Origin: Escherichia coli
GTDB lineage: Bacteria; Pseudomonadota; Gammaproteobacteria; Enterobacterales; Enterobacteriaceae
Direction: 5' to 3' (one strand)
Assembly: GCF_041886205.1 (NCBI RefSeq)
Contig: NZ_CP169029.1
Length of the DNA stretch: 64,000 nucleotides
Shown piece by piece: positions 37,990 to 63,046 of the stretch. The notes beneath the pieces are model-generated. The model was not told where the DNA came from. It did no database searches and saw only the letters and a program-made list of their open reading frames with translations. The first letter of the stretch is position 1; every line of letters begins with the position of its first letter. Made by a program: the position numbers and the translations under genes.

Positions 37990-38016
37990 CCAGTCCTTCG
38001 GGACTGGAATTTTTTT
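37990..38016 (+). terminator. Intrinsic terminator after glpX
   Basis: ccagtcc-ttcg-ggactgg hairpin followed by aattttttt. Confidence 0.65.
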
Positions 38017-38063
38017 GTTCGGAGAACGAAGATAAGGCAAGTCAATCAAAACAGGAGAAAAAC

Positions 38064-38810
38064 ATGGCTGATTGGGTAACAGGCAAAGTCACTAAAGTGC
38101 AGAACTGGACCGACGCCCTGTTTAGTCTCACCGTTCACGCCCCCGTGCTTCCGTTTACCGCCGGGCAATTTACCAAGCTTGGCCTTGAAATCGACGGCGA
38201 ACGCGTCCAGCGCGCCTACTCCTATGTAAACTCGCCCGATAATCCCGATCTGGAGTTTTACCTGGTCACCGTCCCCGATGGCAAATTAAGCCCACGACTG
38301 GCGGCACTGAAACCAGGCGATGAAGTGCAGGTGGTTAGCGAAGCAGCTGGCTTCTTTGTTCTGGATGAAGTACCAGATTGCGAAACGCTATGGATGCTGG
38401 CAACCGGTACAGCGATTGGCCCTTATTTATCGATTCTGCAACTAGGCAAAGATTTAGATCGCTTCAAAAATCTGGTCCTGGTTCACGCCGCACGTTATGC
38501 CGCCGACTTAAGCTATTTGCCACTGATGCAAGAACTGGAAACACGCTACGAAGGGAAACTGCGCATTCAGACGGTGGTCAGTCGGGAAACGGCAGCGGGG
38601 TCGCTCACCGGACGGATACCGGCATTAATTGAAAGTGGGGAACTGGAAAGCGCGATTGGCCTGCCGATGAATAAAGAAACCAGCCATGTGATGCTGTGCG
38701 GCAATCCACAGATGGTGCGCGATACACAACAGTTGCTGAAAGAGACCCGGCAGATGACGAAACATTTACGTCGCCGACCGGGCCATATGACAGCGGAGCA
38801 TTACTGGTAA
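38064..38810 (+). CDS. fpr: Ferredoxin/flavodoxin-NADP+ reductase
   Basis: 248-aa ORF MADWVTGKVTKVQNWTDALFSLTVHAPVLPFTAGQF. Confidence 0.9.
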   Translation: MADWVTGKVTKVQNWTDALFSLTVHAPVLPFTAGQFTKLGLEIDGERVQRAYSYVNSPDNPDLEFYLVTVPDGKLSPRLAALKPGDEVQVVSEAAGFFVLDEVPDCETLWMLATGTAIGPYLSILQLGKDLDRFKNLVLVHAARYAADLSYLPLMQELETRYEGKLRIQTVVSRETAAGSLTGRIPALIESGELESAIGLPMNKETSHVMLCGNPQMVRDTQQLLKETRQMTKHLRRRPGHMTAEHYW

Positions 38811-38814
38811 GCGG

Positions 38815-39243
38815 TTACTTATCGATAAACGGCACGATGAGCAAATCCGCACTCATCTTATTGATCATCCCGCGATATGCCGGCATCAAACGGTTGATAA
38901 ATGAGTGATGATGACCACAGACAAGGAGGTCGCACTGCTCTTTTTGCATAATTTCCAGCAGTGTTTCCGGCATTTCTCCGCGTTCAATACGCAGTTTTGT
39001 CTTCGGCCATTGAATATTTTTCGTCAGTTTATACAGCTTGTTATCCGACTTATTCTTCAACAATTGAAGAATATCTTCTGTTGCAGGGAAGTAGATACCC
39101 GGATACAACTCGCTTAAGCCATCATCAATATGAATTAACGTCAGGTGAGCGTCATTATGTCTGGCGAGCTCCAGGGCTTTATTCACCAGTAAGGCATCTT
39201 CTTCATTCCCGGAAATTGCCACGCCAATGTGTTTATAAGCCAT
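38815..39243 (-). CDS. uspD: Universal stress protein D
   Basis: 142-aa [30 protein letters not shown]; Usp fold. Confidence 0.85.
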
Positions 39244-39269
39244 GTTTAACTCCTTCTAAAGCAACTCCA

Positions 39270-39569
39270 TCAAGCTAACGAACGCAGTGATAACTCAAAA
39301 ATAATCATCTCGGCCTGGCATGAGAAAGTGAAGGCCGCATCAAGCTCAACTTGCCCCTCCAAATCCTTAATCTTATAGGCCACGCTGGCCCCTTCATCTG
39401 CAGAGGATGCAGCGGCGGCAAGCTCTTTCAGTTTGGTCATAAAAGACTCTGCTTCTTCGCGGGTGGCAAAAAAGCGCGAAAACTTACTGGTACAGTTGTC
39501 GTTATCAATCACCGTACCGATATCAATCGCACATCCTTTAGTACTGCATTTATCTACGACATCTTTCAT
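39270..39569 (-). CDS. yiiS: DUF406-family protein YiiS
   Basis: ORF-track entry 39270..39590 trimmed to [20 protein letters not shown] (99 aa). Confidence 0.75.
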
Positions 39570-39780
39570 AGGGCACCTCTGTATATTCACCTCTCTGTCG
39601 ATTACGACTTAAGAATAATGCGCCGTTAAGGGAAGAACAAACAAGTAATGATCTTATGGATTACCATTTTTTTTGATATTGCTTAAGGTGAAGAGTTCAG
39701 AAGGATTTTCCGGGCATTGTCATTTTCATCGTGGAAATAACAATCCCGGAAAAAAATAGCAGTAAGAGATATATTAAAGG

Positions 39781-40221
39781 TTAATTACTTGATTTATTGT
39801 CGGCTTTATACTTCACATCCTGGGTATCTTTACCATATTTATTTTCGCCTTGTGTGCCAACAAACGCACCAAGATCGATAAGCATCATCACCAAAATCAA
39901 CGTCGGGACAAAACGCCCCACCGCCCATTGCCAGACACCCGGTAAAATCGCCCAGTTACCCGCCAGCAGCATCCACGCCACAATCATCAAAAATGCCCAT
40001 GCGCCGGAACGCCCGCGATCATGCAAGCGCTTAACGGTTACTGCCGCTGTTGGCCAAAGCAAGCACACCAGGCAAAACGCCGCGGTCTGAATATCGAGTA
40101 AATTTTTACCCGCCAGTGAGAAAAGCACCAGCATGCCTGCTAACCACAGGCCTATCCAAATCCAGAAATCACGGCGTCCAATACGCCCTTTAAATGAGAA
40201 TAACCATTGCTGTATGGTCAT
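39781..40221 (-). CDS. yiiR: DUF805 inner-membrane protein YiiR
   Basis: 146-aa ORF with three hydrophobic helices. Confidence 0.75.
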   Translation of the reverse strand: MTIQQWLFSFKGRIGRRDFWIWIGLWLAGMLVLFSLAGKNLLDIQTAAFCLVCLLWPTAAVTVKRLHDRGRSGAWAFLMIVAWMLLAGNWAILPGVWQWAVGRFVPTLILVMMLIDLGAFVGTQGENKYGKDTQDVKYKADNKSSN

Positions 40222-40321
40222 GTAAGTTCCTTGATGGTTGTCTTTTCCAGGATTCTACCCTTTTGACAAGGGCGACAGATATCGTTTTAATCGGAGCCAG
40301 TCATAACAAAAGGTACTGTCA

Positions 40322-40921
40322 ATGAAGCCAGGGTGTACGCTGTTTTTTCTCTTATGTTCTGCATTAACCGTTACAACAACGGCGCATGCACAAACACCAG
40401 ATACGGCAACGACCGCGCCTTATCTGCTGGCTGGAGCCCCTACTTTCGATCTCTCCATCAGCCAGTTTCGAGAAGACTTTAACAGCCAGAATCCTAGCCT
40501 GCCACTGAACGAATTTCGTGCCATCGACAGCAGTCCCGACAAAGCCAATCTCACTCGTGCTGCAAGTAAAATTAACGAGAACTTGTATGCTTCTACAGCG
40601 CTGGAGCGCGGTACCTTAAAAATCAAAAGCATTCAAATGACCTGGCTACCCATCCAGGGGCCAGAGCAAAAAGCAGCGAAAGCGAAAGCTCAGGAATACA
40701 TGGCAGCAGTGATCCGCACACTCACCCCATTAATGACCAAAACACAAAGCCAGAAAAAACTGCAGTCGCTGCTAACGGCGGGGAAAAACAAACGTTATTA
40801 CACCGAGACAGAAGGTGCACTGCGTTATGTTGTCGCGGACAACGGCGAAAAGGGGCTGACCTTCGCTGTTGAACCGATTAAGCTGGCGCTATCTGAATCG
40901 CTTGAAGGTTTGAATAAATGA
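40322..40921 (+). CDS. yiiQ: DUF1454 secreted protein YiiQ
   Basis: 199-aa ORF with signal peptide MKPGCTLFFLLCSALTVTTTAHA. Confidence 0.75.
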   Translation: MKPGCTLFFLLCSALTVTTTAHAQTPDTATTAPYLLAGAPTFDLSISQFREDFNSQNPSLPLNEFRAIDSSPDKANLTRAASKINENLYASTALERGTLKIKSIQMTWLPIQGPEQKAAKAKAQEYMAAVIRTLTPLMTKTQSQKKLQSLLTAGKNKRYYTETEGALRYVVADNGEKGLTFAVEPIKLALSESLEGLNK

Positions 40922-41028
40922 CAAAAAGCAAAGCCTTTGTGCCGATGAATCTCTATACTGTTTCACAGACCTGCTGCCCTGCGGGGCGGCCATCTTCCTT
41001 TATTCGCTTATAAGCGTGGAGAATTAAA

Positions 41029-41796
41029 ATGCGACATCCTTTAGTGATGGGTAACTGGAAACTGAACGGCAGCCGCCACATGGTTCACGAGCTGGTTTCT
41101 AACCTGCGTAAAGAGCTGGCAGGTGTTGCTGGCTGTGCGGTTGCAATCGCACCACCGGAAATGTACATCGATATGGCGAAGCGCGAAGCTGAAGGCAGCC
41201 ACATCATGCTGGGTGCGCAAAACGTGGACCTGAACCTGTCCGGCGCATTCACCGGTGAAACTTCTGCCGCTATGCTGAAAGACATCGGCGCACAGTACAT
41301 CATCATCGGCCACTCTGAACGTCGTACTTACCACAAAGAGTCTGACGAACTGATCGCGAAAAAATTCGCGGTGCTGAAAGAGCAGGGTCTGACTCCGGTT
41401 CTGTGCATCGGTGAAACCGAAGCTGAAAACGAAGCGGGAAAAACTGAAGAAGTTTGCGCACGTCAGATCGACGCGGTACTGAAAACTCAGGGTGCTGCGG
41501 CATTCGAAGGTGCGGTTATCGCTTACGAACCTGTATGGGCAATCGGTACTGGCAAATCTGCAACTCCGGCTCAGGCACAGGCTGTTCACAAATTCATCCG
41601 TGACCACATCGCTAAAGTTGACGCTAACATCGCTGAACAAGTGATCATTCAGTACGGCGGCTCTGTAAACGCGTCTAACGCTGCAGAACTGTTTGCTCAG
41701 CCAGATATCGACGGCGCGCTGGTTGGCGGTGCTTCTCTGAAAGCTGACGCTTTCGCAGTGATCGTTAAAGCTGCAGAAGCGGCTAAACAAGCTTAA
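41029..41796 (+). CDS. tpiA: Triosephosphate isomerase
   Basis: 255-aa [26 protein letters not shown]; active-site [11 protein letters not shown]. Confidence 0.95.
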
Positions 41797-41805
41797 GTCT
41801 GACAG

Positions 41806-41828
41806 GTGCCGGATTTCATATCCGGCAC
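41806..41828. terminator. Bidirectional terminator between tpiA and cdh
   Basis: gtgccggat-ttcat-atccggcac perfect 9-bp stem. Confidence 0.6.
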
Positions 41829-41850
41829 TTACTTTCCTTAACTCTTCGCC

Positions 41851-42606
41851 TTAACGCAAAATCTCACACTGATGATCCTGAATTTCCTCGGCTGAAGCAC
41901 GGTTAAGCGTCAGTAGATTTCGTTGTGTCGCCAGCAATACAAATGAGTTATCACTCTGCCGTACCATCGCCAGCCCGTAGCTTCCCATATGTTCCCGCGC
42001 CTCAGGTACTTCTTCTGCCAGCATCATAAATGGGCTGCGTTGTACCAGTTCGCTTTCCGTTACCCGACGCGCCAGGTATTCATGCCCGCGCAAACCACCT
42101 GGCAGTGGCAACCAGCGGCTGCTGATGTTCGCCAGATTGTTATCCAGTTGTTCGCGCACATCAGGACGAATACAAGAGATATGAATATGAAAATGGTTTT
42201 GCGTACGCCCGGTGCGGGAGTTGATCGCCAAAGAAACCGCGCGATCGGGAACCGGCTGGCCGTATTTTTTGCTCATAAAATCACGCGCCTGCCAGGCCAA
42301 CCAAAAGAAGTTCGGCGTTGAAGGATCGGTCAACAAAGGACTTTCAGTACCGTTAATATGATACGTTGGCATCAACAGATATTGCAGTGGACCATTAAGA
42401 TCTTTTAAAACCACGTATCCGGCATTGGGTTTGACTTCCGCACATGGCGAAGGATTTTGATTTTGCTGCTGATTGGGCAAACATTCCTCAAGGACAATCT
42501 TACGTAATGTATCCGACTCTTCACCGGTTAATTTCCAGTAACCAATACCGGCAGCCACAACGGCGATAACTATCATCACCAAAAAAAGAAGACCCGCTTT
42601 TTTCAT
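41851..42606 (-). CDS. cdh: CDP-diacylglycerol pyrophosphatase
   Basis: ORF-track entry 41851..42798 trimmed to [26 protein letters not shown] (251 aa). Confidence 0.85.
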
Positions 42607-42661
42607 CTTTTTTTCCCTGTACCTCAAAGAGATGCAAGGGTAACGCAAAATCGTGACAAAT

Positions 42662-42693
42662 AAAAAACCCGGTCGCGAGAAACCACCGGGTTT
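42662..42693 (-). terminator. Intrinsic terminator after sbp
   Basis: Minus-strand reading cccggtggtttctcgcgaccggg followed by tttttta. Confidence 0.6.
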
Positions 42694-42712
42694 GATAATT
42701 ATCCTGGGGAAA

Positions 42713-43702
42713 TCAGCGTTTGCTGATCTGATCGAACGTACCGCCGTTAGCAAAATGCTCTTTTTGCGCTTTCGTCCAGCCGCCGAACTCTTCATCAATG
42801 GTGAATAACTTCAGCTTTGGAAACGCATTTTCGTACTTTTTCGCCACCTCAGCGTCGCGCGGACGGTAGTAGTTTTTCGCGGCAATTTCCTGACCTTCTG
42901 GCGAGTAGAGATATTTCAGGTAGGCTTCCGCCACCTCTTTAGTACCTTTTTTCTCGACCACTTTATCGACCACCGACACGGTTGGCTCTGCGAGGATAGA
43001 CTCACTCGGCGTGACGATTTCGAATTTATCTTTCCCCAGTTCATTCGCTGCCAGCAGAGCTTCGTTTTCCCAGGCAATCAGTACATCGCCAATTCCGCGC
43101 TCGACAAAAGTGTTAGTGGAGCCACGCGCGCCAGAATCCAGAACTTCGACGTTTTTATACAGTGCCCGAACAAAATCCTGTGCTTTTGCCTGATCGTTGT
43201 TGTTGTGATGCAGCGCGTAGCCCCAGGCTGCCAGGTAGTTCCAGCGCGCGCCACCAGAGCTTTTCGGATTAGGCGTGATCACCGAAACACCCGGTTTAAT
43301 CAGATCGTTCCAGTCATGGATCTGCTTCGGATTTCCCTTACGTACCAGGAAAACAATGGTGGAAGTGTACGGTGCGGAGTTATCCGGCAGACGTTTGATC
43401 CACTCTTTATCAATCCGCCCGCGTTCCGCAATTGCGTCCACGTCATAGGCCAGAGCCAGCGTGACAACATCAGCTTCAATACCGTTGATTACCGACGTCG
43501 CTTGTTTACCTGAGCCACCGTGTGACTGACGAATCACCACGTTATCACCAGTTTGCTGTTTCCAGTGGGCGATGAATGCCTTGTTGTACTGTTCGTACAA
43601 TTCGCGCGTTGGATCATATGAAACGTTAAGAAGCTGAATATCCTTTGCCATAACGCTGGTTGCCGCCAGCAAAAATGTTAACCCTACGCCCCACTTGTTC
43701 AT
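42713..43702 (-). CDS. sbp: Periplasmic sulfate-binding protein
   Basis: 329-aa ORF with signal peptide [19 protein letters not shown]. Confidence 0.9.
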
Positions 43703-43867
43703 CGCCCGACTCTCTTATGTTGTGTTGTGATGAGCAAAGCGTGCCAGAAGGTTAACCAAACATTAAAGAATAAAAAAAGATTGGCTATAACTTGCGGGTA
43801 TATGTTGGGGGATTAAAAAGGCGGAAGAAATCCGCCTCATATTGCTGACAAAGTGCGCTTTGTCCAT

Positions 43868-43966
43868 GCCGGATGCGGCGCGAACGCCTTATCCGGCCTA
43901 CAAAAGTTTGCAAATTCAATAAATTGCAGAATTCATGTAGACCTGATAAGCGAAGCGCATCAGGCC
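43868..43966. repeat. RIP/BIME-type element (inverted REP pair with IHF-site-like spacer)
   Basis: gccggatgcggcgcgaacgccttatccggcctac ... tgcaaattcaataaattgca ... gtagacctgataagcgaagcgcatcaggcc. Confidence 0.8.
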
Positions 43967-44021
43967 TTTTTGCTTCTGTCATCGGTTTCAGGCTAAAGGA
44001 ATCTGCCTTTTTCCGAAATCA

Positions 44022-46067: not shown

Positions 46068-46148
46068 AAATACTCCCGCTATCAACTGACGCTAGTATAA
46101 CGGAAGCAAATCATCTGCAATGCATTAAGCAGCAGGCAAGTTGAGGAT

Positions 46149-46207
46149 AAAAAAAACCCCCACATCATGTGGGGGAAGACAGGGATGGTGTCTATGGCAA
46201 GGAAAAC
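46149..46207 (-). ncRNA. cpxQ: Probable CpxQ sRNA region (3' end of cpxP mRNA, including the cpxP terminator)
   Basis: Intrinsic terminator cccccaca-tca-tgtggggg plus U-run (46149-46175) directly after the cpxP stop; CpxQ is known to be processed from the cpxP 3' UTR; boundaries here are approximate. Confidence 0.4.
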
Positions 46208-46215
46208 AGGGTTTA

Positions 46216-46716
46216 CTACTGGGAACGTGAGTTGCTACTACTCAATAGCTTCAACGATGAACTTTTTTGCCATTGCGTCACGTCGCGCAACTGCTCCATT
46301 CGTTGTTGATGTTTCTCGTTTAAAACCGCTTGCTGCTCCGGCGTTAACAGGCGATACATTTGGTTGCGGACTTTTGCCATCTCAACCTGACGAGCAATTT
46401 GCTCATTCGCCATTTTTTCTGCCTGTGCGCGCACAGCGTTTTCATCAAAATTTTCTGCGGTGACAAGGCGATGCATTGTCTCCAGTTCGCTAACATTAAC
46501 AGGAGGCTGTTCGTGCCGGGCCTGTTGCATAAGATCTCGCATCTGCTGACGCTGATGTTCGGTTAAACTTATGCCGTCGAACATATGGCTCTGCGTACTG
46601 CGCTGCGTAAGTTCTTCACCCGGATGCCAGTTATCGCCTGAACCGACTTCAGCAGCGTGGCTTAATGAACTGACTGCCAGCGTTGAGGCCATGACGGCAG
46701 CGGTAACTATGCGCAT
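46216..46716 (-). CDS. cpxP: Periplasmic Cpx pathway inhibitor/chaperone
   Basis: ORF-track entry 46216..46719 trimmed to [21 protein letters not shown] (166 aa); LTxxQ motifs. Confidence 0.9.
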
Positions 46717-46795
46717 CATTTGCTCCCAAAATCTTTCTGTCGCGATTCAACGATAGAGAGTTTACGATTCAGGCTGCAAACATGCGTCAGGGGGT

Positions 46796-46810
46796 GTAAA
46801 ACAACGTAAA
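46796..46810. promoter_or_regulatory. CpxR-P binding box in the cpxP/cpxRA divergent region
   Basis: GTAAA-acaac-GTAAA, exact match to the GTAAA(N5)GTAAA consensus. Confidence 0.7.
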
Positions 46811-46865
46811 GTCATGGATTAGCGACGTCTGATGACGTAATTTCTGCCTCGGAGGTATTTAAACA

Positions 46866-47564
46866 ATGAATAAAATCCTGTTAGTTGATGATGACCGAGA
46901 GCTGACTTCCCTATTAAAGGAGCTGCTCGAGATGGAAGGCTTCAACGTGATTGTTGCCCACGATGGGGAACAGGCGCTTGATCTTCTGGACGACAGCATT
47001 GATTTACTTTTGCTTGATGTAATGATGCCTAAGAAAAATGGTATCGACACATTAAAAGCACTTCGCCAGACACACCAGACGCCTGTCATTATGTTGACGG
47101 CGCGCGGCAGCGAACTTGATCGCGTTCTCGGCCTTGAGCTGGGCGCAGATGACTATCTCCCGAAACCGTTTAATGATCGTGAGCTGGTGGCACGTATTCG
47201 CGCGATCCTGCGCCGTTCGCACTGGAGCGAGCAACAGCAAAACAACGACAACGGTTCACCGACACTGGAAGTTGATGCCTTAGTGCTGAATCCAGGCCGT
47301 CAGGAAGCCAGCTTCGACGGGCAAACGCTGGAGTTAACCGGTACTGAGTTTACCCTGCTCTATTTGCTGGCACAGCATCTGGGTCAGGTGGTTTCCCGTG
47401 AACATTTAAGCCAGGAAGTGCTGGGCAAACGCCTGACGCCTTTCGACCGCGCTATTGATATGCACATTTCCAACCTGCGTCGTAAACTGCCGGATCGTAA
47501 AGATGGTCACCCGTGGTTTAAAACCTTGCGTGGTCGCGGCTATCTGATGGTTTCTGCTTCATGA
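46866..47564 (+). CDS. cpxR: Envelope-stress response regulator (OmpR family)
   Basis: 232-aa ORF MNKILLVDDDRELTSLLKELLEMEGFNV. Confidence 0.95.
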   Translation: MNKILLVDDDRELTSLLKELLEMEGFNVIVAHDGEQALDLLDDSIDLLLLDVMMPKKNGIDTLKALRQTHQTPVIMLTARGSELDRVLGLELGADDYLPKPFNDRELVARIRAILRRSHWSEQQQNNDNGSPTLEVDALVLNPGRQEASFDGQTLELTGTEFTLLYLLAQHLGQVVSREHLSQEVLGKRLTPFDRAIDMHISNLRRKLPDRKDGHPWFKTLRGRGYLMVSAS

Positions 47565-48934
47565 TAGGCAGCTTAACCGCGCGCATCTTCGCCATCTTCT
47601 GGCTGACGCTGGCGCTGGTGTTGATGTTGGTTTTGATGTTACCCAAGCTCGATTCACGCCAGATGACCGAGCTTCTGGATAGCGAACAGCGTCAGGGGCT
47701 GATGATTGAGCAGCATGTTGAAGCGGAGCTGGCGAACGATCCGCCCAACGATTTAATGTGGTGGCGGCGTCTGTTCCGGGCGATTGATAAGTGGGCACCG
47801 CCAGGACAGCGTTTGTTATTGGTGACCACCGAAGGCCGCGTGATCGGCGCTGAACGCAGCGAAATGCAGATCATTCGTAACTTTATTGGTCAGGCCGATA
47901 ACGCCGATCATCCGCAGAAGAAAAAGTATGGCCGCGTGGAACTGGTCGGTCCGTTCTCCGTACGTGATGGCGAAGATAATTACCAACTTTATCTGATTCG
48001 TCCGGCCAGCAGTTCTCAATCCGATTTCATTAACTTACTGTTTGACCGCCCGCTATTACTGCTGATTGTCACCATGTTGGTCAGTACGCCGCTGCTGTTG
48101 TGGTTGGCCTGGAGTCTGGCAAAACCGGCGCGTAAGCTGAAAAACGCTGCCGATGAAGTTGCCCAGGGAAACTTACGCCAGCACCCGGAACTGGAAGCGG
48201 GGCCACAGGAATTCCTTGCCGCAGGTGCCAGTTTTAACCAGATGGTCACCGCGCTGGAGCGTATGATGACCTCCCAGCAGCGTCTGCTCTCTGATATCTC
48301 TCACGAGCTGCGCACCCCACTGACGCGTCTGCAACTGGGTACGGCGTTACTGCGCCGTCGTAGCGGTGAAAGCAAGGAACTGGAGCGTATTGAAACCGAA
48401 GCGCAACGTCTGGACAGCATGATCAACGATCTGTTGGTGATGTCACGTAATCAGCAAAAAAACGCGCTGGTAAGCGAAACCATCAAAGCCAACCAGTTGT
48501 GGAGTGAAGTGCTGGATAACGCGGCGTTCGAAGCCGAGCAAATGGGCAAGTCGTTGACAGTTAACTTCCCGCCTGGGCCGTGGCCGCTGTACGGCAATCC
48601 GAACGCCCTGGAAAGTGCGCTGGAAAACATTGTTCGTAATGCTCTGCGTTATTCCCATACGAAGATTGAAGTGGGCTTTGCGGTAGATAAAGACGGTATC
48701 ACCATTACGGTGGACGACGATGGTCCTGGCGTTAGCCCGGAAGATCGCGAACAGATTTTCCGTCCGTTCTATCGGACCGATGAAGCACGCGATCGTGAAT
48801 CTGGCGGTACAGGATTGGGGCTGGCGATTGTTGAAACCGCCATTCAGCAGCATCGTGGCTGGGTGAAGGCAGAAGACAGCCCGCTGGGCGGTTTACGGCT
48901 GGTGATTTGGTTGCCGCTGTATAAGCGGAGTTAA
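47561..48934 (+). CDS. cpxA: Envelope-stress sensor histidine kinase
   Basis: 457-aa ORF with H-box SHELRTPLTRL; 4-bp overlap with cpxR. Confidence 0.95.
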   Translation: MIGSLTARIFAIFWLTLALVLMLVLMLPKLDSRQMTELLDSEQRQGLMIEQHVEAELANDPPNDLMWWRRLFRAIDKWAPPGQRLLLVTTEGRVIGAERSEMQIIRNFIGQADNADHPQKKKYGRVELVGPFSVRDGEDNYQLYLIRPASSSQSDFINLLFDRPLLLLIVTMLVSTPLLLWLAWSLAKPARKLKNAADEVAQGNLRQHPELEAGPQEFLAAGASFNQMVTALERMMTSQQRLLSDISHELRTPLTRLQLGTALLRRRSGESKELERIETEAQRLDSMINDLLVMSRNQQKNALVSETIKANQLWSEVLDNAAFEAEQMGKSLTVNFPPGPWPLYGNPNALESALENIVRNALRYSHTKIEVGFAVDKDGITITVDDDGPGVSPEDREQIFRPFYRTDEARDRESGGTGLGLAIVETAIQQHRGWVKAEDSPLGGLRLVIWLPLYKRS

Positions 48935-48945
48935 ACTCCGCATTT
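48925..48945 (+). terminator. Hairpin at the end of cpxA
   Basis: gcggag-ttaaa-ctccgc overlapping the stop codon, followed by attt. Confidence 0.5.
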
Positions 48946-49029
48946 GTAGGCAGGATAAGGCGTTTACGCCGCATCCGGCATTTGAGCAGGATGCCTGATG
49001 CGACGCTGATAGCGTCTTATCAGGCCTAC
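48946..49029. repeat. REP pair (BIME)
   Basis: gtaggcaggataaggcgtttacgccgcatccggca ... gcctgatgcgacgctgatagcgtcttatcaggcctac. Confidence 0.8.
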
Positions 49030-49039
49030 ACTCCGGGGG

Positions 49040-49714
49040 TTATTTTCCCCACAACCGCCGGGAAAAATCTTCGATCTTGCCGCTCAGTCGGCGCTTTTGC
49101 ATCGTTCGCGTCCAGCTTTTCGATAACCCGGCAGCGGAGAGTAAACGGTGATACTGATCGTCATCAAACGGCATATGCCATGCGATGGCGGCAGCCTCCT
49201 GCACGGTTACATCGCTGACACGGGAAACCAACTCCAGCGGCGCGTCCGCAGACACTTTCCCTGGCGCTATCACGCTATACAACCATCCCACTTTACCCGT
49301 GTTTTGCATCAACTGCGCTATATCGCTGATATCAAAATGGTAATTGAGTTTATAGCAAGGCGAGCGCGGCTGGCTGACCTGAATTAATGCCTCTCCCCAG
49401 CGGAAAATATCGCCCATATAAACATTACTTTCCGTCAGGCCGTCGGTTGAGAGGTTTTCACCAAACGCAGGCGCAACAAACAACTCCGCCTGTTCCGGAA
49501 ATTCCCGCGCCCAGTAGAGATAATGCTCACGAGGATAATGACACAGCGCTCTGTCTGGCCCGCCGTGAACCTTTTTCTCCGCCTGCTCGTCACCTTCCAG
49601 CCCCAGCTCCGTCAGCATCAACTCACCATCAACCTGGATTTTAGCAATTGCGCTGGGTTTGCCTTCGGGATAAGCCTGAATCTTGCCTGTGTATACATCA
49701 ACCGGATATCGCAT
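49040..49714 (-). CDS. yiiM: MOSC-domain protein YiiM
   Basis: ORF-track entry 49040..49744 trimmed to MRYPVDVYTGKIQAYPEGKP (224 aa). Confidence 0.8.
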   Translation of the reverse strand: MRYPVDVYTGKIQAYPEGKPSAIAKIQVDGELMLTELGLEGDEQAEKKVHGGPDRALCHYPREHYLYWAREFPEQAELFVAPAFGENLSTDGLTESNVYMGDIFRWGEALIQVSQPRSPCYKLNYHFDISDIAQLMQNTGKVGWLYSVIAPGKVSADAPLELVSRVSDVTVQEAAAIAWHMPFDDDQYHRLLSAAGLSKSWTRTMQKRRLSGKIEDFSRRLWGK

Positions 49715-49862
49715 CTGTTCCCTCTCCACGAGAAATTTCCCCATTAGACCATATTTATTTTATGTCAGGCGTGCTGTTTTCGCGGTAAGTATCCAGGCAG
49801 GAACTCAATAGCAAACCGGACGAACGTTAGTTCATCCGGCTGTGGGGATTAAGGAAGCAGGT

Positions 49863-50854
49863 TTATTTCACCGTACCTAAAATTTCGATTTTCGCTGCTC
49901 TGGCTTTGACTTTACGTGACCAAATAGAGGTAAGAATTGGCACCAGAATCGAAGTCACAATGACCGCCGTCGCTACCAGCGAAGTTGCTGCCGGAGCCAT
50001 CGGTTTAAACGCAGGCACCATTTCTGCAATCAGCACAGGTGTCGCTACCGCGGCCCCTGCGGAACTGGAAGCGGCAATTCCGGCAGTGCCATCGCCACCG
50101 CCAATCAATTTATCGGCGATAATCAACGGAATACCGGTCACGATAATTACTGCCACACCCAACAGGATCCCCAGCAAACCAGTCTGGGCAATCACAGTCA
50201 AATCAATGGTATTGCCCAGCGCGAAGGCAAAGAATGGAATCAGCGTTTGCACCGCTTTGCTGAAAAATTCTCGTAATTCAGGGTCAAGGTTCCCCAGGGC
50301 AAAGCCCACCAGGAACGGTAATACTGCGCCGACGAAAACATGCGGTTCAAACGAGGCAATCCCTGCAGTGCCCAGAATAATCATCGTCATGAGCGGCCGG
50401 ACTCCAACGACATCAACACAAATGCCCCAGCTTCTTCTTTTGTGCCGTACTGCTGCATGATGGAAGCGTAAAGTCCGCCATTGGTCATATCCATCGCCGC
50501 CACCAGCGCCAGCGTTGAAAGTCCGGCAAAGAATCCAACTTCAACACCATGTTCCGGAATAATGCGCGAGGCAATTGCCGCAACCACCCACGCGACGGCA
50601 ATTTTTGTTACCACCAGCGTACCGGATTTACGCAATACCGTTCCCGTCGCGCTTAATTTTATTGACGCCCCCATGCAAAAAAACCACACCGCCAGAATGG
50701 GCACCGTACCGGTAATCATCCCGTTGGTGAATGATCCAAAATATTTCCCCGCCCCCGGCGAGAAGGTGTGGCACAGTGCGCCAAGGAATAGCGGGACGAG
50801 CATCATCCCCCCCGGGATTTTCTCAATCGAGCGTTTTATCTGCATTTCCATCAC
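49863..50854 (-). pseudogene. kdgT: 2-keto-3-deoxygluconate permease, split into two frames by an apparent 1-bp deletion
   Basis: N-terminal ORF 50387..50854 (155 aa) and C-terminal ORF 49863..50390 (175 aa) are contiguous KdgT-family halves in different frames; total about 330 aa as expected for KdgT. Confidence 0.75.
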
Positions 50855-50964
50855 CTGTCGGCATATTTTTAAGGGCTGATGCGTAATTCCTCAATGGAGC
50901 ATCAGTGTTGATGGAAACGAAGATAGACATTCATTTAATCAATAAAAGTGATCAAAACCACATC

Positions 50965-50985
50965 AATTGAAACACTGTTTTATTT
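50965..50985. promoter_or_regulatory. Putative KdgR operator upstream of kdgT
   Basis: aattGAAACActgTTTTAttt, close to the KdgR palindrome (TGAAACA-N-TGTTTCA); about 110 bp upstream of the kdgT start. Confidence 0.5.
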
Positions 50986-51030
50986 TTATTGGATCATTGT
51001 TTTTATTTTGAAATTGATCACAAAAAAACC

Positions 51031-51066
51031 ACCGCCGTTGGCGATGGTTCATTTTTTAAGCTGATA
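51031..51066 (-). terminator. Intrinsic terminator after sodA
   Basis: Minus-strand reading accatcgcc-aacg-gcggtggt followed by ttttttt. Confidence 0.6.
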
Positions 51067-51104
51067 TGCGGCGTAAACGCCTCATTGCAGCAGGCGGCAA
51101 ATGA

Positions 51105-51725
51105 TTATTTTTTCGCCGCGAAACGTGCCGCTGCTTCATCCCAGTTCACCACGTTCCAGAACTCTTTGATGTAGTCCGGACGGCGGTTCTGGAATTTCAG
51201 GTAGTAAGCATGTTCCCACACATCCAGGCCCAGAATCGGGAAGCCGGAAGCGCCAGAAATAGCTTCACCCATCAGCGGGGAATCCTGGTTAGCAGTAGAA
51301 ACCACCGCCAGTTTATCGCCTTTCAGCACCAGCCATGCCCAGCCGGAACCAAAGCGGGAAGCTGCCGCTTTCTCAAATTCTGCTTTGAAGTTATCAACGG
51401 AGCCGAAGTCACGTTCGATAGCCGCTTTCAGGTCACCCTGTAAGGTGGTGCCTTTTTTCAGACCTTTCCAGAACAGGCTGTGGTTAGCGTGACCGCCAGC
51501 GTTGTTGCGCAGTACGGTTTTCTTGTCTGCTGGCAGCTGGTCCAGTTTGGTGATCAGCTCTTCAACCGGCAGGTTGGCAAATTCTGGCAGGCTTTCCAGC
51601 GCCGCGTTGGCGTTGTTGACGTAGGTCTGATGGTGTTTGGTATGGTGGATTTCCATGGTCTGCTTATCGAAGTGCGGTTCCAGGGCATCGTAAGCATACG
51701 GCAGGGATGGCAGGGTATAGCTCAT
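51105..51725 (-). CDS. sodA: Manganese superoxide dismutase
   Basis: ORF-track entry 51105..51731 trimmed to [38 protein letters not shown] (206 aa). Confidence 0.95.
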
Positions 51726-51772
51726 ATTCATCTCCAGTATTGTCGGGCGGCCGATTGTTAATGCCGCGTAAG

Positions 51773-51812
51773 CAGTTGGTTCATTATAGTTAATTAAATG
51801 ATATTGAAAATG
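51773..51812 (-). promoter_or_regulatory. sodA promoter with Fur-box-like site
   Basis: Minus-strand reading CATTGATAATCATTTTCAATATCATT (Fur-box-like) then TATAAT at 51773-51778, about 45 bp upstream of the start codon. Confidence 0.55.
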
Positions 51813-52009
51813 ATTATCAATGCCGTACTTTTCGTAAGGGTATGGTTTTGCAGGAAAATGCCCGAGATGTGAAGCAAATCACCCACTTAATGCCGTGATT
51901 GCCAGTAAATCGACAACGGCGGCAACAGGCGAAAGGTTAATCGACAGCACGATTTTTACACTCATCTCGTCGGAGATGTGACGCGACGAAAAATGATGAG
52001 GATAAGAAG

Positions 52010-53044
52010 ATGAGTAACGCGATTACGATGGGGATATTTTGGCATTTGATCGGCGCGGCCAGTGCAGCCTGTTTTTACGCTCCGTTCAAAAAAGTAAAAA
52101 AATGGTCATGGGAAACCATGTGGTCAGTTGGTGGGATTGTTTCGTGGATTATTCTGCCGTGGGCCATCAGCGCCCTGTTACTGCCGAATTTCTGGGCGTA
52201 TTACAGCTCGTTTAGTCTCTCTACGCTGCTGCCTGTTTTTCTGTTCGGCGCTATGTGGGGGATCGGTAATATCAACTACGGCCTGACCATGCGTTATCTC
52301 GGCATGTCGATGGGAATTGGCATCGCCATTGGCATTACGTTGATTGTCGGTACGCTGATGACGCCAATTATCAACGGCAATTTCGATGTTCTGCTTAATA
52401 CCGAAGGCGGACACATGACGTTGCTCGGCGTTCTGGTGGCGCTGATTGGTGTAGGGATTGTGACTCGCGCCGGGCAGTTGAAAGAGCGCAAGATGGGCAT
52501 TAAAGCCGAAGAGTTCAATCTGAAAAAAGGGCTGGTGCTGGCGGTGATGTGCGGCATTTTCTCTGCCGGGATGTCCTTTGCGATGAACGCCGCAAAACCG
52601 ATGCATGAAGCCGCTGCCGCACTGGGCGTCGATCCACTGTATGTCGCTCTGCCAAGCTATGTCATCATCATGGGCGGCGGCGCGATCATCAACCTCGGTT
52701 TCTGCTTCATTCGTCTGGCAAAAGTGAAGGATTTGTCGCTAAAAGCCGACTTCTCGCTGGCAAAAACGCTGATCATTCACAATGTGTTACTCTCAGCACT
52801 GGGCGGGTTGATGTGGTATCTGCAATTCTTTTTCTATGCCTGGGGCCACGCCCGCATTCCGGCGCAGTATGACTACATCAGTTGGATGCTGCATATGAGT
52901 TTCTATGTATTGTGCGGCGGTATCGTCGGGCTGGTGCTGAAAGAGTGGAACAATGCAGGTCGCCGTCCGGTAACGGTGTTGAGCCTCGGTTGTGTGGTGA
53001 TTATTGTCGCCGCCAACATCGTCGGCATCGGCATGGCGAATTAA
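52010..53044 (+). CDS. rhaT: L-rhamnose:proton symporter
   Basis: 344-aa polytopic [29 protein letters not shown]. Confidence 0.9.
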
Positions 53045-53889
53045 TCTTTCTGCGAATTGAGATGACGCCACTGGCTGGGCGTCATCCCGGTTTCCCGGGT
53101 AAACACCACCGAAAAATAGTTACTATCTTCAAAGCCACATTCGGTCGAAATATCACTGATTAACAGGCGGCTATGCTGGAGAAGATATTGCGCATGACAC
53201 ACTCTGACCTGCCGCAGATATTGATTGATGGTCATTCCAGTCTGCTGGCGAAATTGCTGACGCAAAACGCGCTCACTGCACGATGCCTCATCACAAAATT
53301 TATCCAGCGCAAAGGGACTTTTCAGGCTAGCCGCCAGCCGGGTAATCAGCTTATCCAGCAACGTTTCGCTGGATGTTGGCGGCAACGAATCACTGGTGTA
53401 ACGATGGCGATTCAGCAACATCACCAACTGCCCGAACAGCAACTCAGCCATTTCGTTAGCAAACGGCACATGCTGACTACTTTCATGCTCAAGCTGACCG
53501 ATAATCTGCCGCGCCTGCGCCATCCCAACGCTACCTAAGCGCCAGTGTGGTTGCCCTGCGCTGGCGCTAAATCCCGGAATCGCCCCCTGCCAGTCAAGAT
53601 TCAGCTTCAGCCGCTCTGGGCAATAAATAATATTCTGCAAAACCAGATCGTTAACGGAAGCGTAGGAGTGTTTATCGTCAGCATGAATGTAAAAGAGATC
53701 GCCACGGGTAATGCGATAAGGACGATCGTTGAGTACATGCAGACCATTACCGCGCCAGACAATCACCAGCTCACAAAAATCATGTGTATGTTCGGCAAAG
53801 ACATCTTGCGGATAACGGTCAGCCACAGCGACTGCCTGCTGGTCGCTGGCAAAAAAATCATCTTTGAGAAGTTTTAACTGATGCGCCAC
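53041..53889 (-). CDS. rhaR: AraC-family activator RhaR
   Basis: ORF-track entry 53041..54096; 282-aa form starting at GTG 53889 ([13 protein letters not shown]); a longer 312-aa form from ATG 53979 would overlap the rhaS 3' end; start is uncertain. Confidence 0.85.
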
Positions 53890-53962
53890 CGTGGCTACCT
53901 CGGCCAGAGAACGAAGTTGATTATTCGCAATATGGCGTACAAATACGTTGAGAAGATTCGCG

Positions 53963-54799
53963 TTATTGCAGAAAACCATCCCGTCCCTGGCGAATATCAC
54001 GCGGTGACCAGTTAAACTCTCGGCGAAAAAGCGTCGAAAAGTGGTTACTGTCGCTGAATCCGCAGCGATAGGCGATGTCAGTAACGCTGGCCTCACTGTG
54101 ACGTAGCAGATGTCGGGCTTTCATCAGTCGCAGGCGGTTCAGGTAACGCTGAGGCGTCAGTCCCGTTTGCTGCTTAAGCTGCCGATGTAGCGTACGCAGT
54201 GAAAGAGAAAATTGATCCGCCACGGCATCCCAATTCACCTCATCGGCAAAATGGTCCTCCAGCCAGGCCAGAAGCAAGTTGAGACGTGATGCGCTGTTTT
54301 CCAGGTTCTCCTGCAAACTGCTTTTACGCAGCAAGAGCAGTAATTGCATAAACAAGATCTCGCGACTGGCGGTCGAGGGTAAATCATTTTCCCCTTCCTG
54401 CTGTTCCATCTGTGCAACCAGCTGTCGCACCTGCTGCAATACGCTGTGGTTAACGCGCCAGTGAGACGGATACTGCCCATCCAGCTCTTGTGGCAGCAAC
54501 TGATTCAGCCCGGCGAGAAACTGAAATCGATCCGGCGAGCGATACAGCACATTGGTCAGACACAGATTATCGGTATGTTCATACAGATGCCGATCATGAT
54601 CGCGTACGAAACAGACCGTGCCACCGGTGATGGTATAGGGCTGCCCATTAAACACATGAATACCCGTGCCATGTTCGACAATCACAATTTCATGAAAATC
54701 ATGATGATGTTCAGGAAAATCCGCCTGCGGGAGCCGGGGTTCTATCGCCACGGACGCGTTACCAGACGGAAAAAAATCCACACTATGTAATACGGTCAT
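53963..54799 (-). CDS. rhaS: AraC-family activator RhaS
   Basis: 278-aa [40 protein letters not shown]. Confidence 0.9.
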
Positions 54800-54958
54800 A
54801 CTGGCCTCCTGATGTCGTCAACACGGCGAAATAGTAATCACGAGGTCAGGTTCTTACCTTAAATTTTCGACGGAAAACCACGTAAAAAACGTCGATTTTT
54901 CAAGATACAGCGTGAATTTTCAGGAAATGCGGTGAGCATCACATCACCACAATGAAGC

Positions 54959-55030
54959 AAATTGTGAACATCATCACGTTCATCTTTCCCTGGTTGCCAA
55001 TGGCCCATTTTCCTGTCAGTAACGAGAAGG
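54959..55030 (+). promoter_or_regulatory. rhaBAD promoter control region: CRP site followed by RhaS binding half-sites
   Basis: attGTGAAcatcaTCACGttc (CRP-like) then tctttccctggttgccaatggcccattttcctgtcagtaacgagaagg, matching the rhaB promoter as I recall it. Confidence 0.7.
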
Positions 55031-55053
55031 TCACGAATTCAGGCGCTTTTTAG

Positions 55054-57812
<2,759 letters not shown>

Positions 57813-57816
57813 ACAC

Positions 57817-58038
57817 TGCCGGATGCGGCGCGAGCGCCTTATCCGGCCTACAGGTCGGCAACAGTTGTAGGCCTGATAAGACGCGACAGCGTCGCATCAG
57901 GCATTGATTGCCGGATGCGGCACGAGTGCCTTATCCGGCCTACAGGTCGGCAATAGTTGTAGGCCTGATAAGACGCGACAGCGTCGCATCAGGCATTGAT
58001 TGCCGGATGCGGCACGAGCGCCTTATCCGGCCTACGGG
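57817..58038. repeat. Tandemly repeated BIME unit (~92 bp x ~2.4) between rhaA and rhaD
   Basis: Unit tgccggatgcggcgcgagcgccttatccggcctacaggtcggcaacagttgtaggcctgataagacgcgacagcgtcgcatcaggcattgat repeated at 57817-57908 and 57909-58000 with 3 substitutions; partial third copy to about 58038. Confidence 0.85.
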
Positions 58039-58078
58039 TCGTGCATCTGACAACACCGAATTTACAGGAACACAGAAC

Positions 58079-58903
58079 ATGCAAAACATTACCCAGTCCT
58101 GGTTTGTCCAGGGAATGATCAAAGCCACCACCGATGCCTGGCTGAAAGGCTGGGACGAGCGCAACGGCGGCAACCTGACGCTGCGCCTGGATGACGCCGA
58201 TATCGCGCCTTATAAAGACAACTTCCATGCACAACCGCGCTATATCCCGCTCAGCCAGCCCATGCCTTTACTGGCAAATACACCGTTTATTGTCACCGGC
58301 TCCGGCAAATTCTTCCGTAACGTCCAGCTTGATCCTGCAGCTAACTTAGGCGTCGTAAAAATCGACAGCGACGGCGCGGGCTACCATATTCTCTGGGGGT
58401 TAACCAACGAAGCCGTTCCCACTTCCGAACTTCCGGCTCACTTCCTTTCCCACTGCGAGCGCATTAAAGCCACCAACGGTAAAGATCGGGTGATCATGCA
58501 CTGCCACGCCACCAACCTGATCGCCCTCACCTATGTACTGGAAAACGACACCGCGGTCTTTACTCGCCAACTGTGGGAAGGCAGCACCGAGTGTCTGGTA
58601 GTGTTCCCGGATGGCGTTGGCATTTTGCCGTGGATGGTGCCCGGCACGGACAAAATCGGCCAGGCGACCGCACAAGAGATGCAAAAACATTCGCTGGTGT
58701 TGTGGCCCTTCCACGGCGTCTTCGGCAGCGGTCCGACACTGGATGAAACATTCGGTTTAATCGACACTGCAGAAAAATCAGCACAAGTATTAGTGAAGGT
58801 TTATTCGATGGGCGGCATGAAACAGACCATCAGCCGTGAAGAGCTGATTGCACTCGGTGAGCGTTTTGGCGTTACGCCACTATCCAGTGCGCTGGCGCTG
58901 TAA
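58079..58903 (+). CDS. rhaD: Rhamnulose-1-phosphate aldolase
   Basis: ORF-track entry 57908..58903 has its 5' part inside the BIME repeats; trimmed to [24 protein letters not shown] (274 aa). Confidence 0.9.
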
Positions 58904-58912
58904 GGAGCAAAC

Positions 58913-59227
58913 ATGATCCGCAAAGCCTTTGTCATGCAGGTTAACCCCGACGCCCACGAAGAGTATCAGCGTCGGCATAACCCCATCTGGCCGGAACTGG
59001 AAGCAGTGTTGAAATCTCACGGTGCGCATAACTACGCCATTTACCTCGACAAAGCGCGTAATCTGCTGTTTGCCATGGTAGAGATTGAATCTGAAGAACG
59101 GTGGAATGCGGTAGCCAGCACTGAAATCTGCCAACGTTGGTGGAAATATATGACCGACGTTATGCCAGCTAACCCGGATAACAGCCCGGTGAGTAGCGAG
59201 CTGCAAGAAGTGTTTTACCTGCCTTAA
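58913..59227 (+). CDS. rhaM: L-rhamnose mutarotase
   Basis: 104-aa [33 protein letters not shown]. Confidence 0.9.
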
Positions 59228-59267
59228 TGAGTTGCGGTGCCGGAAAATATCCAGCACCGCGACTTCA

Positions 59268-60661
59268 TCAGAAGAAGTATTTAAAGCGAACGCGTGCGCC
59301 GTAACGGTCATCAGTATCATCACCGTGTTTTTTATCACCGTCGCTATCCAGAATGGAGTAATACGTCCCGAGGTAAATATTAAAGTTCTCCATATCCATC
59401 ACATTAGCGAACTGATAAGACGCATGAATGGTGTGAATGGTGTACGTCCCTTCATCATCAATCCAGCAGTCGTTATCACAAACTACACCGCTGAATTCAT
59501 CAATCTTATTGTGCGCGTAGATATAACCGAGCTCGAAACGTTTCCACAGCGCGTTAATCCCGGCAGTGAAATCTTTCTCATTATTAGCATCTAAATAGGC
59601 GGTATTAAGATTAACCACAATGCCATTGTCCGGATCCATTTTCAGGCCGTTCCAGGTCATGCTCATACCATAGCCGGTACGATCGGACTGATCGACAAAA
59701 TTACCCTTGCTATCGGTATAACCATAAGCATTATTTACCACGTTAGCTTCCATCGCTGCGGAAACGGTGAATTCTTCCGTCGGCGACCAGGCAATTACCG
59801 GACGCAGATAAGCAACATTTTTCTGCTGCTCCATATCGCGTCCATGATAATTACCGTCATTATATAAAGATGTTCCGTCTTCAAGTAACGTGTTTAATTC
59901 AAAATACCAGTTATCAAGTTGTTTGCTGACGAGGAAATTACCGCCAGCGTTAGAACGCCCGCGGCCCTCTTTCATCATATAGATATAACCGCTGCCATCG
60001 TCATAAAGATCGTTCGCAGTATTACCGGAATGTTCAACAAAGGTATCCTGATTCAACGGGAACATATCGTAGGCTTCAAAACGGCCTACTTTGACCTCCA
60101 GTCGTTTTCTTTGCCAAAGAAGAATACCGCATCATCGATATTTACTGAACCGTACATATCTCCCAGCGGTTGTGCGGAGAACCCGGCGAAATAACCATTA
60201 TCCAGTTTTCGCATACCATCAAAACCTAACAGAATACGACCATTGAGATTCCACTGTTCATTAGTGGGATCGCTATTCACATCAGCGTTGGTCATTGCCA
60301 GCAGGCCATGATTACTTTCCGCATCCATATTAAATTCTACGTCACCGTAGATTTTTAAATCGCCATAACCTGAAAGCAAAAGATTAGGTGAGGTGGCATT
60401 TTTCTTTGCAGATTCCGCCGTTGTCTGTCCATTTACCGGCGTATTGCCCTGGGCAGCCTTAATTTCGCGGATCTCAGCGGCTTGTTGTATCTGCAGCTGT
60501 TTAACCTGGCTCTCTGCTTTTGCCGCCCGCATTTCTGCCGCTTCCAGGCGTTCTTCCAGCAATGCCATGCGTTGTTCCAGCGTTAAATGCTGTGTTTTTG
60601 CCATACCGGTACTACATGCCAATAATAAACCGATGGCTAAAGATAATGTCGATTTTTTCAT
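59268..60661 (-). pseudogene. Outer-membrane porin-like gene (signal peptide + coiled coil + beta-barrel), split by a frameshift
   Basis: ORF 60086..60661 encodes signal peptide MKKSTLSLAIGLLLACSTGMA and a heptad coiled coil; ORF 59268..60065 encodes a Gly/Tyr/Asn/Asp-rich barrel-like domain ending ...RVRFKYFF; the frames overlap between about 60088 and 60134. Confidence 0.55.
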
Positions 60662-61137
60662 TATTTACGTTCCCTGAAATAAAGGAGGCCCTACGCTTTC
60701 CAAAAGGAATACGTATATAGAGAAATATAAAGTGTGCACTTTCGAATTTTTAATCCAACTTCAGCAGGCCGATGGATAGTATCCCGCCGCATAATATGAG
60801 TAAATCCGCTGATTTCCTGGAACGTGAGGAATATAACAATAGTGCCGTTTTTAACTAAATATCGTAAAAAATATGAGATATGATTCACGCTGACACATAA
60901 GCCAAAAATATAAATAACGTTTAGACAAATTATCCGAGACATTTAAACATTTACAAAATCATTAAATAATGATTTTTTATTCACAACATTTATTTAACCC
61001 ATCAATATGTGCCTTACACCGCAAAATTTATCCTTCACTCTGCCTTATATTGTCACGACTTCACGACATATCCGCGCTCATCACAAAACCGCCCCACCGT
61101 TACAATTAACAATAATATTTTTTCATGGAGTCCAATA

Positions 61138-61584
61138 ATGGCAGCTCTTACTGCAAACTGTATTGACCTGAATATTCAGGGCAATGGCGCTTATTCCGTT
61201 CTGAAGCAGTTGGCGACAATAGCGTTACAAAACGGTTTTATCACCGACTCACACCAGTTCCTGCAAATTCTGCTGCTGCGCGAAAAAATGCACTCCACCG
61301 GTTTTGGTTCCGGCATCGCCGTGCCGCACGGTAAAAGCGCCTGCGTTAAACAACCGTTCGTGTTATTCGCCCGCAAAGCGCAGGCCATTGACTGGAAAGC
61401 CAGTGACGGCGAAGACGTCAATTGCTGGATCTGCCTCGGCGTGCCGCAAAGCGGCGAAGAGGATCAGGTCAAAATCATCGGCACACTGTGTCGCAAAATT
61501 ATCCACCAGGATTTTATCAACCAACTGCAACAGGGCGACGCCGACCAGGTGCTTGCCTTGTTAAATCAAACCCTCAGCTCATAA
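61138..61584 (+). CDS. frvA: PTS fructose-like EIIA component
   Basis: ORF-track entry 61009..61584 trimmed to MAALTANCIDLNIQGNGAYSVLKQ (148 aa). Confidence 0.85.
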   Translation: MAALTANCIDLNIQGNGAYSVLKQLATIALQNGFITDSHQFLQILLLREKMHSTGFGSGIAVPHGKSACVKQPFVLFARKAQAIDWKASDGEDVNCWICLGVPQSGEEDQVKIIGTLCRKIIHQDFINQLQQGDADQVLALLNQTLSS

Positions 61585-61594
61585 GGAAGTGGCG

Positions 61595-63046
61595 ATGGAG
61601 TCATCCTTACGTATTGTCGCGATCACCAACTGCCCCGCCGGGATCGCTCACACCTACATGGTGGCGGAAGCCCTGGAACAGAAAGCCCGTTCTCTCGACC
61701 ATACCATAAAAGTGGAAACTCAAGGGTCCAGCGGCGTTGAAAACCGCTTATCCAGCGAAGAGATTGCCGCCGCCGATTACGTGATTCTCGCCACCGGGCG
61801 TGGCTTGAGCGGCGATGACCGGGCGCGGTTTGCCGGGAAGAAAGTTTATGAGATTGCCATCTCCCAGGCGTTGAAAAATATCGACCAGATTTTCAGCGAA
61901 TTACCGACAAACTCGCAGCTTTTTGCCGCAGATAGCGGCGTGAAGCTTGGCAAACAGGAAGTGCAAAGCGGCAGCGTGATGAGCCACCTGATGGCGGGCG
62001 TCTCTGCGGCGCTGCCGTTTGTCATCGGCGGTGGTATCCTGGTAGCGCTTGCCAACATGCTGGTGCAGTTCGGTTTGCCGTATACCGATATGTCGAAAGG
62101 CGCGCCGTCGTTTACCTGGGTAGTTGAATCCATCGGTTACCTTGGCTTCACCTTTATGATCCCCATCATGGGCGCTTATATTGCCTCGTCGATTGCCGAT
62201 AAACCGGCTTTCGCTCCGGCGTTTCTGGTTTGCTATCTGGCGAACGACAAAGCGCTGCTCGGCACCCAGTCGGGTGCGGGATTCCTCGGCGCGGTGGTGC
62301 TGGGGCTGGCGATTGGCTATTTCGTCTTCTGGTTCCGCAAAGTGCGCCTTGGCAAAGCATTACAACCGCTGCTCGGTTCAATGCTGATCCCGTTCGTTAC
62401 TCTGCTGGTTTTCGGCGTGCTCACTTACTACGTTATCGGGCCGGTGATGTCCGACCTCATGGGCGGGCTGCTCCACTTCCTGAATACCATTCCTCCATCA
62501 ATGAAGTTTGCGGCAGCGTTTCTGGTCGGTGCGATGCTGGCGTTCGATATGGGCGGCCCCATCAATAAAACCGCCTGGTTCTTCTGCTTCTCACTGCTGG
62601 AAAAACACATTTATGACTGGTACGCCATCGTCGGCGTTGTCGCGTTGATGCCGCCCGTTGCGGCGGGTCTTGCGACGTTCATTGCGCCCAAACTGTTTAC
62701 CCGACAGGAAAAAGAGGCTGTCAGTAGTGCCATTGTGGTCGGTGCCACAGTCGCAACCGAACCGGCTATACCTTACGCTCTGGCAGCTCCGTTGCCGATG
62801 ATTACCGCCAATACGCTGGCGGGCGGCATTACCGGCGTGCTGGTGATCGCTTTCGGAATCAAACGTCTGGCACCTGGTTTGGGTATCTTTGACCCGCTGA
62901 TCGGCCTGATGTCGCCGGTAGATTCGTTTTATCTGGTGCTGGCGATTGGCCTCGCGCTGAACATTTCATTCATTATCGTCCTGAAAGGATTGTGGTTACG
63001 CCGCAAAGCGAAAGCCGCGCAACAGGAGCTTGTCCATGAACATTGA
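61595..63046 (+). CDS. frvB: PTS fructose-like EIIBC component
   Basis: ORF-track entry 61589..63046; ATG 61595 with AAGGAAG upstream; EIIB motif ITNCPAGIAHTYM then polytopic EIIC. Confidence 0.85.
   Translation: MESSLRIVAITNCPAGIAHTYMVAEALEQKARSLDHTIKVETQGSSGVENRLSSEEIAAADYVILATGRGLSGDDRARFAGKKVYEIAISQALKNIDQIFSELPTNSQLFAADSGVKLGKQEVQSGSVMSHLMAGVSAALPFVIGGGILVALANMLVQFGLPYTDMSKGAPSFTWVVESIGYLGFTFMIPIMGAYIASSIADKPAFAPAFLVCYLANDKALLGTQSGAGFLGAVVLGLAIGYFVFWFRKVRLGKALQPLLGSMLIPFVTLLVFGVLTYYVIGPVMSDLMGGLLHFLNTIPPSMKFAAAFLVGAMLAFDMGGPINKTAWFFCFSLLEKHIYDWYAIVGVVALMPPVAAGLATFIAPKLFTRQEKEAVSSAIVVGATVATEPAIPYALAAPLPMITANTLAGGITGVLVIAFGIKRLAPGLGIFDPLIGLMSPVDSFYLVLAIGLALNISFIIVLKGLWLRRKAKAAQQELVHEH

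Follow-up and report, generated by a model that had tools for sequence, protein, structure and literature searches.

Whether an Escherichia coli strain truly carries a kdgT gene broken in two, or whether the break was introduced when its genome was assembled, is the question raised by the locus between sodA and yiiM in contig NZ_CP169029.1 (assembly GCF_041886205.1), from which a continuous stretch of 64,000 nucleotides was analysed and is termed the window. KdgT is the KdgR-regulated 2-keto-3-deoxygluconate (KDG)/H+ permease, and in the window its gene is represented by two overlapping open reading frames (ORFs) instead of one. The original prediction held that the minus-strand ORFs 50387..50854 and 49863..50390 are the two halves of KdgT lying in different frames, and both the coordinates and the family matches described below are in agreement with it. 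The features of the locus, numbered by window position, are as follows.

49863..50845, minus strand: the interrupted kdgT gene, read here as a probable pseudogene; 983 nt (the intact gene has 984 nt, 327 codons plus stop); located between sodA and yiiM.
50387..50845, minus strand: N-terminal ORF of 152 aa, consisting of KdgT residues 1-150 followed by Arg-Ser-stop; the TGA is at 50389-50387.
49863..50390, minus strand: C-terminal ORF of 175 aa, running from the native Met153 (ATG at 50390-50388) to the native stop.
50387..50390, minus strand: ATGA stop/start overlap, formed by the TGA of the N-terminal ORF and the ATG of the C-terminal ORF; a product of the frameshift, read directly from the sequence.
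50402..50405, minus strand: GGAG within the gene, 11 nt before the ATG of the C-terminal ORF; a candidate weak ribosome-binding site.
50397..50398, minus strand: deletion site, GG versus GGG in intact alleles; codon Gly150, coding nt 448-450.

Both ORFs match the Pfam KdgT family (PF03812), with the N-terminal ORF covering profile positions 1-143 (E=1.7e-51) and the C-terminal ORF covering positions 146-305 (E=6.9e-57), and the corresponding scores of 175.9 and 193.6 bits stand against a cut-off of 25. The two minus-strand ORFs are therefore adjoining pieces of one permease, well past what chance would produce. The N-terminal ORF comprises 155 aa when it is read from an upstream GTG (50387..50854) and 152 aa when it is read from the annotated ATG at 50845. 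The orthologous position of the gene was confirmed by the sodA-kdgT-yiiM synteny, together with the finding of 0 substitutions relative to kdgT of REL606 and MB53. A scan of positions 49700-51150 for a sigma-70-like promoter returned none.

Alignment to intact kdgT alleles revealed that the window gene is the same as the REL606/BL21/MB53 allele at all 983 bases present, the sole difference being one absent G. The intact alleles read TCC GGG CCG CTC ATG, which in the window has become TCC GGC CGC TCA TGA; the deletion in codon 150 leads to a stop two codons on, and an uninterrupted frame of about 327 codons is absent from the window gene. When the G was restored in silico, a 984-nt, 327-codon ORF was obtained with 0 nucleotide differences from kdgT of REL606 and MB53. 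The single-base deletion claimed beforehand is thus borne out by this alignment, in which exactly one base is missing, and the allele can be marked by the 30-mer GTCGTTGGAGTCCGGCCGCTCATGACGATG. The earlier placement of the break was near-right: "around 50395" is off by 2-3 bases, and the run concerned is only G3, which can hardly be regarded as a homopolymer. The loss of one G from the Gly150 GGG codon shifts the frame and ends it two codons further on as Gly-Arg-Ser-stop; as to the mechanism, replication slippage may have removed the base. A quasi-palindrome or template-switching event, by which CGGGCCG would be turned into the palindrome CGGCCG, was also considered and set aside; since the arms of this palindrome are only 3 bp, simple slippage is the more economical explanation.

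Among 5,416 complete E. coli genomes in which this stretch is present, two contain the exact 61-mer over the deletion, namely wlxctx60, which was derived from the faeces of an Asian black bear in Japan, and 6EVA, which was derived from human faeces in Singapore. In both of these genomes kdgT is labelled 'frameshifted' by PGAP, while the deletion is absent from the other 5,414, and MB53, the closest genome without it, has an intact kdgT. Among broader collections (NCBI, ENA, JGI and Logan), the exact 152-aa truncated product (P0001) was found on 87 contigs and in 128 collection blocks, and its records include E. coli N1 (EKI48303.1) as well as de novo metagenome contigs of the MEGAHIT/SPAdes style. 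The de novo metagenome contigs show the same pair of 152-aa and 175-aa genes with a 4-nt overlap, and in the contigs L007-L009 the gene calls of the pair occupy positions 1501-1959 and 1956-2483. The exact 175-aa C-terminal protein (P0016) is present on at least 1000 contigs, because different upstream lesions leave an identical ORF.

The relatedness of the carriers was investigated through a four-way alignment of window positions 46146-64000, which included the window, wlxctx60, 6EVA and MB53. The local SNP tree took the form ((window, wlxctx60), 6EVA), MB53, and the kdgT deletion maps to the branch common to the three carriers. Over about 64 kb, 10 SNPs and no indels separate the window from wlxctx60; since wlxctx60 also has a prophage that the window lacks, the two are separate isolates, and their assemblies are clean and agree at every indel. 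Relative to MB53, the window shows only three single-base indels in 45 kb. The few changes among the kdgT deletion alleles are all synonymous, which speaks somewhat against a loss of function, although most of them are older than the split or follow from having looked up the exact protein. Only 0-2 changes are private, and the allele is too young to show whether selection has relaxed.

Several neighbouring features were recorded in the course of these comparisons. At window position 50990, in the sodA-kdgT intergenic region and 145 nt upstream of the kdgT start, the window carries T as a private SNP, where MB53, wlxctx60, 6EVA and L007-L009 have C. In 6EVA (L006), two of the three private SNPs of the 17.9-kb shared stretch lie inside the 983-nt kdgT, at the equivalents of window positions 50295 and 50618, and both are synonymous; this odd clustering could reflect a small recombination patch or chance. 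A carbohydrate porin gene at window positions 59268-60661 (minus strand) also contains a one-base deletion, near 60096, where CCTTCC has become CCTCC and the ORFs 59268..60065 and 60086..60661 remain. The porin deletion is common to wlxctx60, where PGAP labels the gene 'frameshifted', while the gene is intact in 6EVA and MB53. The porin deletion thus falls on the inner branch, and within the same clone this pseudogene is nested and the younger of the two. Between cpxP and fieF, wlxctx60 and 6EVA each harbor a P2-like prophage (integrase, Cox, replication protein, tail genes and OgrK), whereas the window, like MB53, has an empty attachment site at about 46146-46192, with about 47 bp common to both sides of the junction.

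Elsewhere in the window, a 5.8-kb island located between metF and metL (13044-18831) encodes a PTS EIIC subunit, a MalI-like regulator, a metallophosphatase/5'-nucleotidase and a hypothetical protein; of 5,426 complete E. coli genomes, only six contain the island at a coverage of at least 80%, and the copy in wlxctx60 matches that of the window at 100% identity. At position 34367, in the zapB-glpF intergenic region, TTT of MB53 is reduced to TT in the window, and wlxctx60 agrees with the window here because there are no indels between the two. In the rhaA-rhaD intergenic region (57817-58045), a direct repeat of roughly 137 bp was observed with 95.6% identity and an offset of about 92 bp, which looks like a tandem REP/BIME-type element. 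The density of SNPs relative to MB53 is patchy across window positions 1-13043, 18832-22000 and 28000-44000, some blocks showing 0-2 SNPs per 2 kb and others 14-53, as would be expected of a mosaic produced by recombining E. coli lineages.

The consequence of the lesion for the protein was considered on a structural model. No solved structure of KdgT was found by sequence at E values up to 1, and AlphaFold2 was run on an alignment of 50 full-length KdgT homologues with 28-91% identity, which afforded a model with a mean pLDDT of 91.4, a pTM of 0.86 and an ASBT-like fold. The predicted KdgT superposes on the ASBT/BASS bile acid:sodium symporter fold (PDB 3zuy and 8oyf), characterized by its core and panel and its broken helices, with a TM-score of about 0.65; KdgT differs from these symporters in its substrate and shares only 14-17% sequence identity with them, and the comparison was used solely to place the break. 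In the model, residues 148-150 (Glu-Ser-Gly) form an unwound kink between helices 142-147 and 151-160. Pro151, which heads the second half-helix, is conserved in 48 of the 50 homologues, and Gly150 in 32 of them. The window does not encode a continuous chain through this Gly150-Pro151 kink, its Pro-Leu being replaced by Arg-Ser-stop.

The chain break is accordingly placed by the model inside a membrane-embedded helix of the transporter core, not in the loop between the halves of the fold. A break between the two five-helix repeats, which would be expected from the Pfam midpoint, was rejected because the AlphaFold model puts the break within a helix, at the conserved Gly-Pro kink. The N-terminal product would be cut inside this transmembrane helix with the loss of the near-invariant Pro151, and the downstream 175-codon ORF would be the leftover native frame from Met153. 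The combination of the chain break with a new arginine at the kink would probably abolish transport.

In terms of physiology, KdgR keeps kdgT under tight repression and the permease serves external KDG only, so that the cost of losing the gene is expected to be small. Hexuronates enter by ExuT and yield KDG inside the cell; growth on galacturonate is therefore not diagnostic for KdgT, and only a strain derepressed for kdgR that is supplied with external KDG, and followed by its growth or uptake, tests the permease. The present strain is expected to be unable to take up external KDG, yet still able to catabolise the KDG made internally from hexuronates. A published study confirms that KdgR represses both kdgK and kdgT, and that KDG enters the cell through KdgT or arises within it (PMC4784465).

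Taken together, the window very probably holds a kdgT allele whose loss of function is genuine and has been inherited vertically. The original prediction had allowed for either a kdgT pseudogene or a homopolymer error of the assembly, and the pseudogene is upheld, since the deletion recurs in independent assemblies and is nested in the phylogeny. It might be argued that the strain truly reads GGG and that one base was dropped in base-calling or polishing, as the missing base belongs to a short G run and the sequencing technology of the window is unstated; however, the same deletion is present in two further independently deposited complete genomes and in many metagenome and isolate assemblies, and random errors would not nest as it does. 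Moreover, the freedom from indels between the window and wlxctx60 speaks against an error, as do the long G7, T7 and G5 runs of kdgT, which are unbroken in the window, in contrast with the truly error-ridden assemblies L014 and L015 that drop bases at G7, G5, G4 and A4. Neither a GATC nor a CCWGG methylation motif was seen at the deletion site when the sequence was inspected. An assembly or sequencing error is hence extremely improbable, and the split ORFs of the window are regarded as real mutations rather than assembly noise. A further reading assumes that the allele is real and that full-length KdgT is restored by programmed recoding, either by ribosomal -1 frameshifting or by transcriptional slippage. 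It can draw on nothing beyond the frameshift sitting in a conserved gene; the site U CCG GCC G contains neither a slippery X XXY YYZ heptamer nor a long A/T run, and the frameshift is missing from 5,414 of the 5,416 complete genomes as well as from every other genus examined, which makes it a rare derived state confined to a rare clade, not a conserved feature. Programmed frameshifting is effectively excluded.

That both ORFs are translated by termination-reinitiation at ATGA and form a working KdgT of two chains is very unlikely; if true, it would be a natural split permease born of a single-base deletion. The ATGA overlap and the GGAG 11 nt upstream of the ATG could let the C-terminal piece be translated, the two pieces together miss only P151 and L152, the break lies near the midpoint of the Pfam profile, and the private changes of 6EVA are synonymous. 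Nevertheless, the predicted break is at a kink inside a transmembrane helix and not in the inter-repeat loop, and it removes the highly conserved proline and adds an arginine. The Kaback laboratory reportedly found that LacY cut in loops can function as two chains, while cuts inside helices are said to have abolished activity. Full-length single genes are usual among the KdgT homologues listed, and the allele is both rare and recent, so that selection to keep the gene split is not evidenced; the synonymous differences of the contig L008 represent standing polymorphism between alleles and are partly an effect of the exact-protein look-up. Returning to a genuine pseudogene, a refinement compatible with it, and conditional on it, is that this exact deletion arose repeatedly, or that kdgT is repeatedly lost as dispensable or costly in the gut, which is judged to be a tangible but minor possibility. 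In its favor, the same G is deleted from a K-12-like kdgT allele in contigs of the L008 type (5 of the 24 read); this allele has 7 nucleotide differences in kdgT and 34 per 3,459 nt when the flanks are included, and those closest to the deletion lie 117 nt away on its upstream side and 32 nt away on its downstream side. Other lineages bear an 82-bp deletion between GCTGG repeats, the loss of a G from a G4 run at nt 418 (CP004057.1 and CP034931.1), the loss of an A at nt 405, and, in L019, a disruption without any indel. On the other hand, L009 combines the two haplotypes in a mosaic, which means that recombination is active and could have transferred the deletion; in addition, contigs from metagenomes may be chimeric, the G3 run is not a strong hotspot, and low-quality assemblies (L014 and L015) account for some of the other lesions. 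The deletion on two haplotypes either arose twice or was carried by a short recombination tract.

With regard to what is already known, the publications on kdgT pseudogenes or frameshifts in E. coli do not appear, in their accessible portions, to treat this allele, and one preprint among them records, in the part available, only a sodA/kdgT intergenic mutation. The allele itself is nevertheless present in the databases, where RefSeq flags the frameshift in two genomes and truncated products have been deposited, and it is an ordinary lineage-specific pseudogene that involves no new mechanism. It provides a clean one-base marker of a small E. coli clone that has turned up in a bear, in humans and in metagenomes, with little import beyond strain bookkeeping.

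Compared with the intact kdgT of E. coli (WP_001166063.1, REL606/MB53), the window shares the sodA-kdgT-yiiM locus, is identical at all 983 common nucleotides and has PF03812 matches in both halves, while it is without one G in codon 150, lacks a single 327-codon frame and has lost P151 and L152. The same deletion is found in AC6IW3_RS22395 of wlxctx60 (NZ_AP045833.1), which is 100% identical over a 998-nt query covering kdgT, and in SE698_RS00360 of 6EVA (NZ_CP138428.1), which differs from the window gene by two synonymous SNPs. In the alleles of CP004057.1 and CP034931.1 and in the 82-bp deletion allele, the same gene is inactivated and the same 175-aa ORF is left, whereas their lesions are independent and occupy positions unlike that of the window. 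Such different lesions in other E. coli and Shigella lineages indicate that the loss of kdgT is recurrent there, which suggests that the importer is dispensable in these niches.
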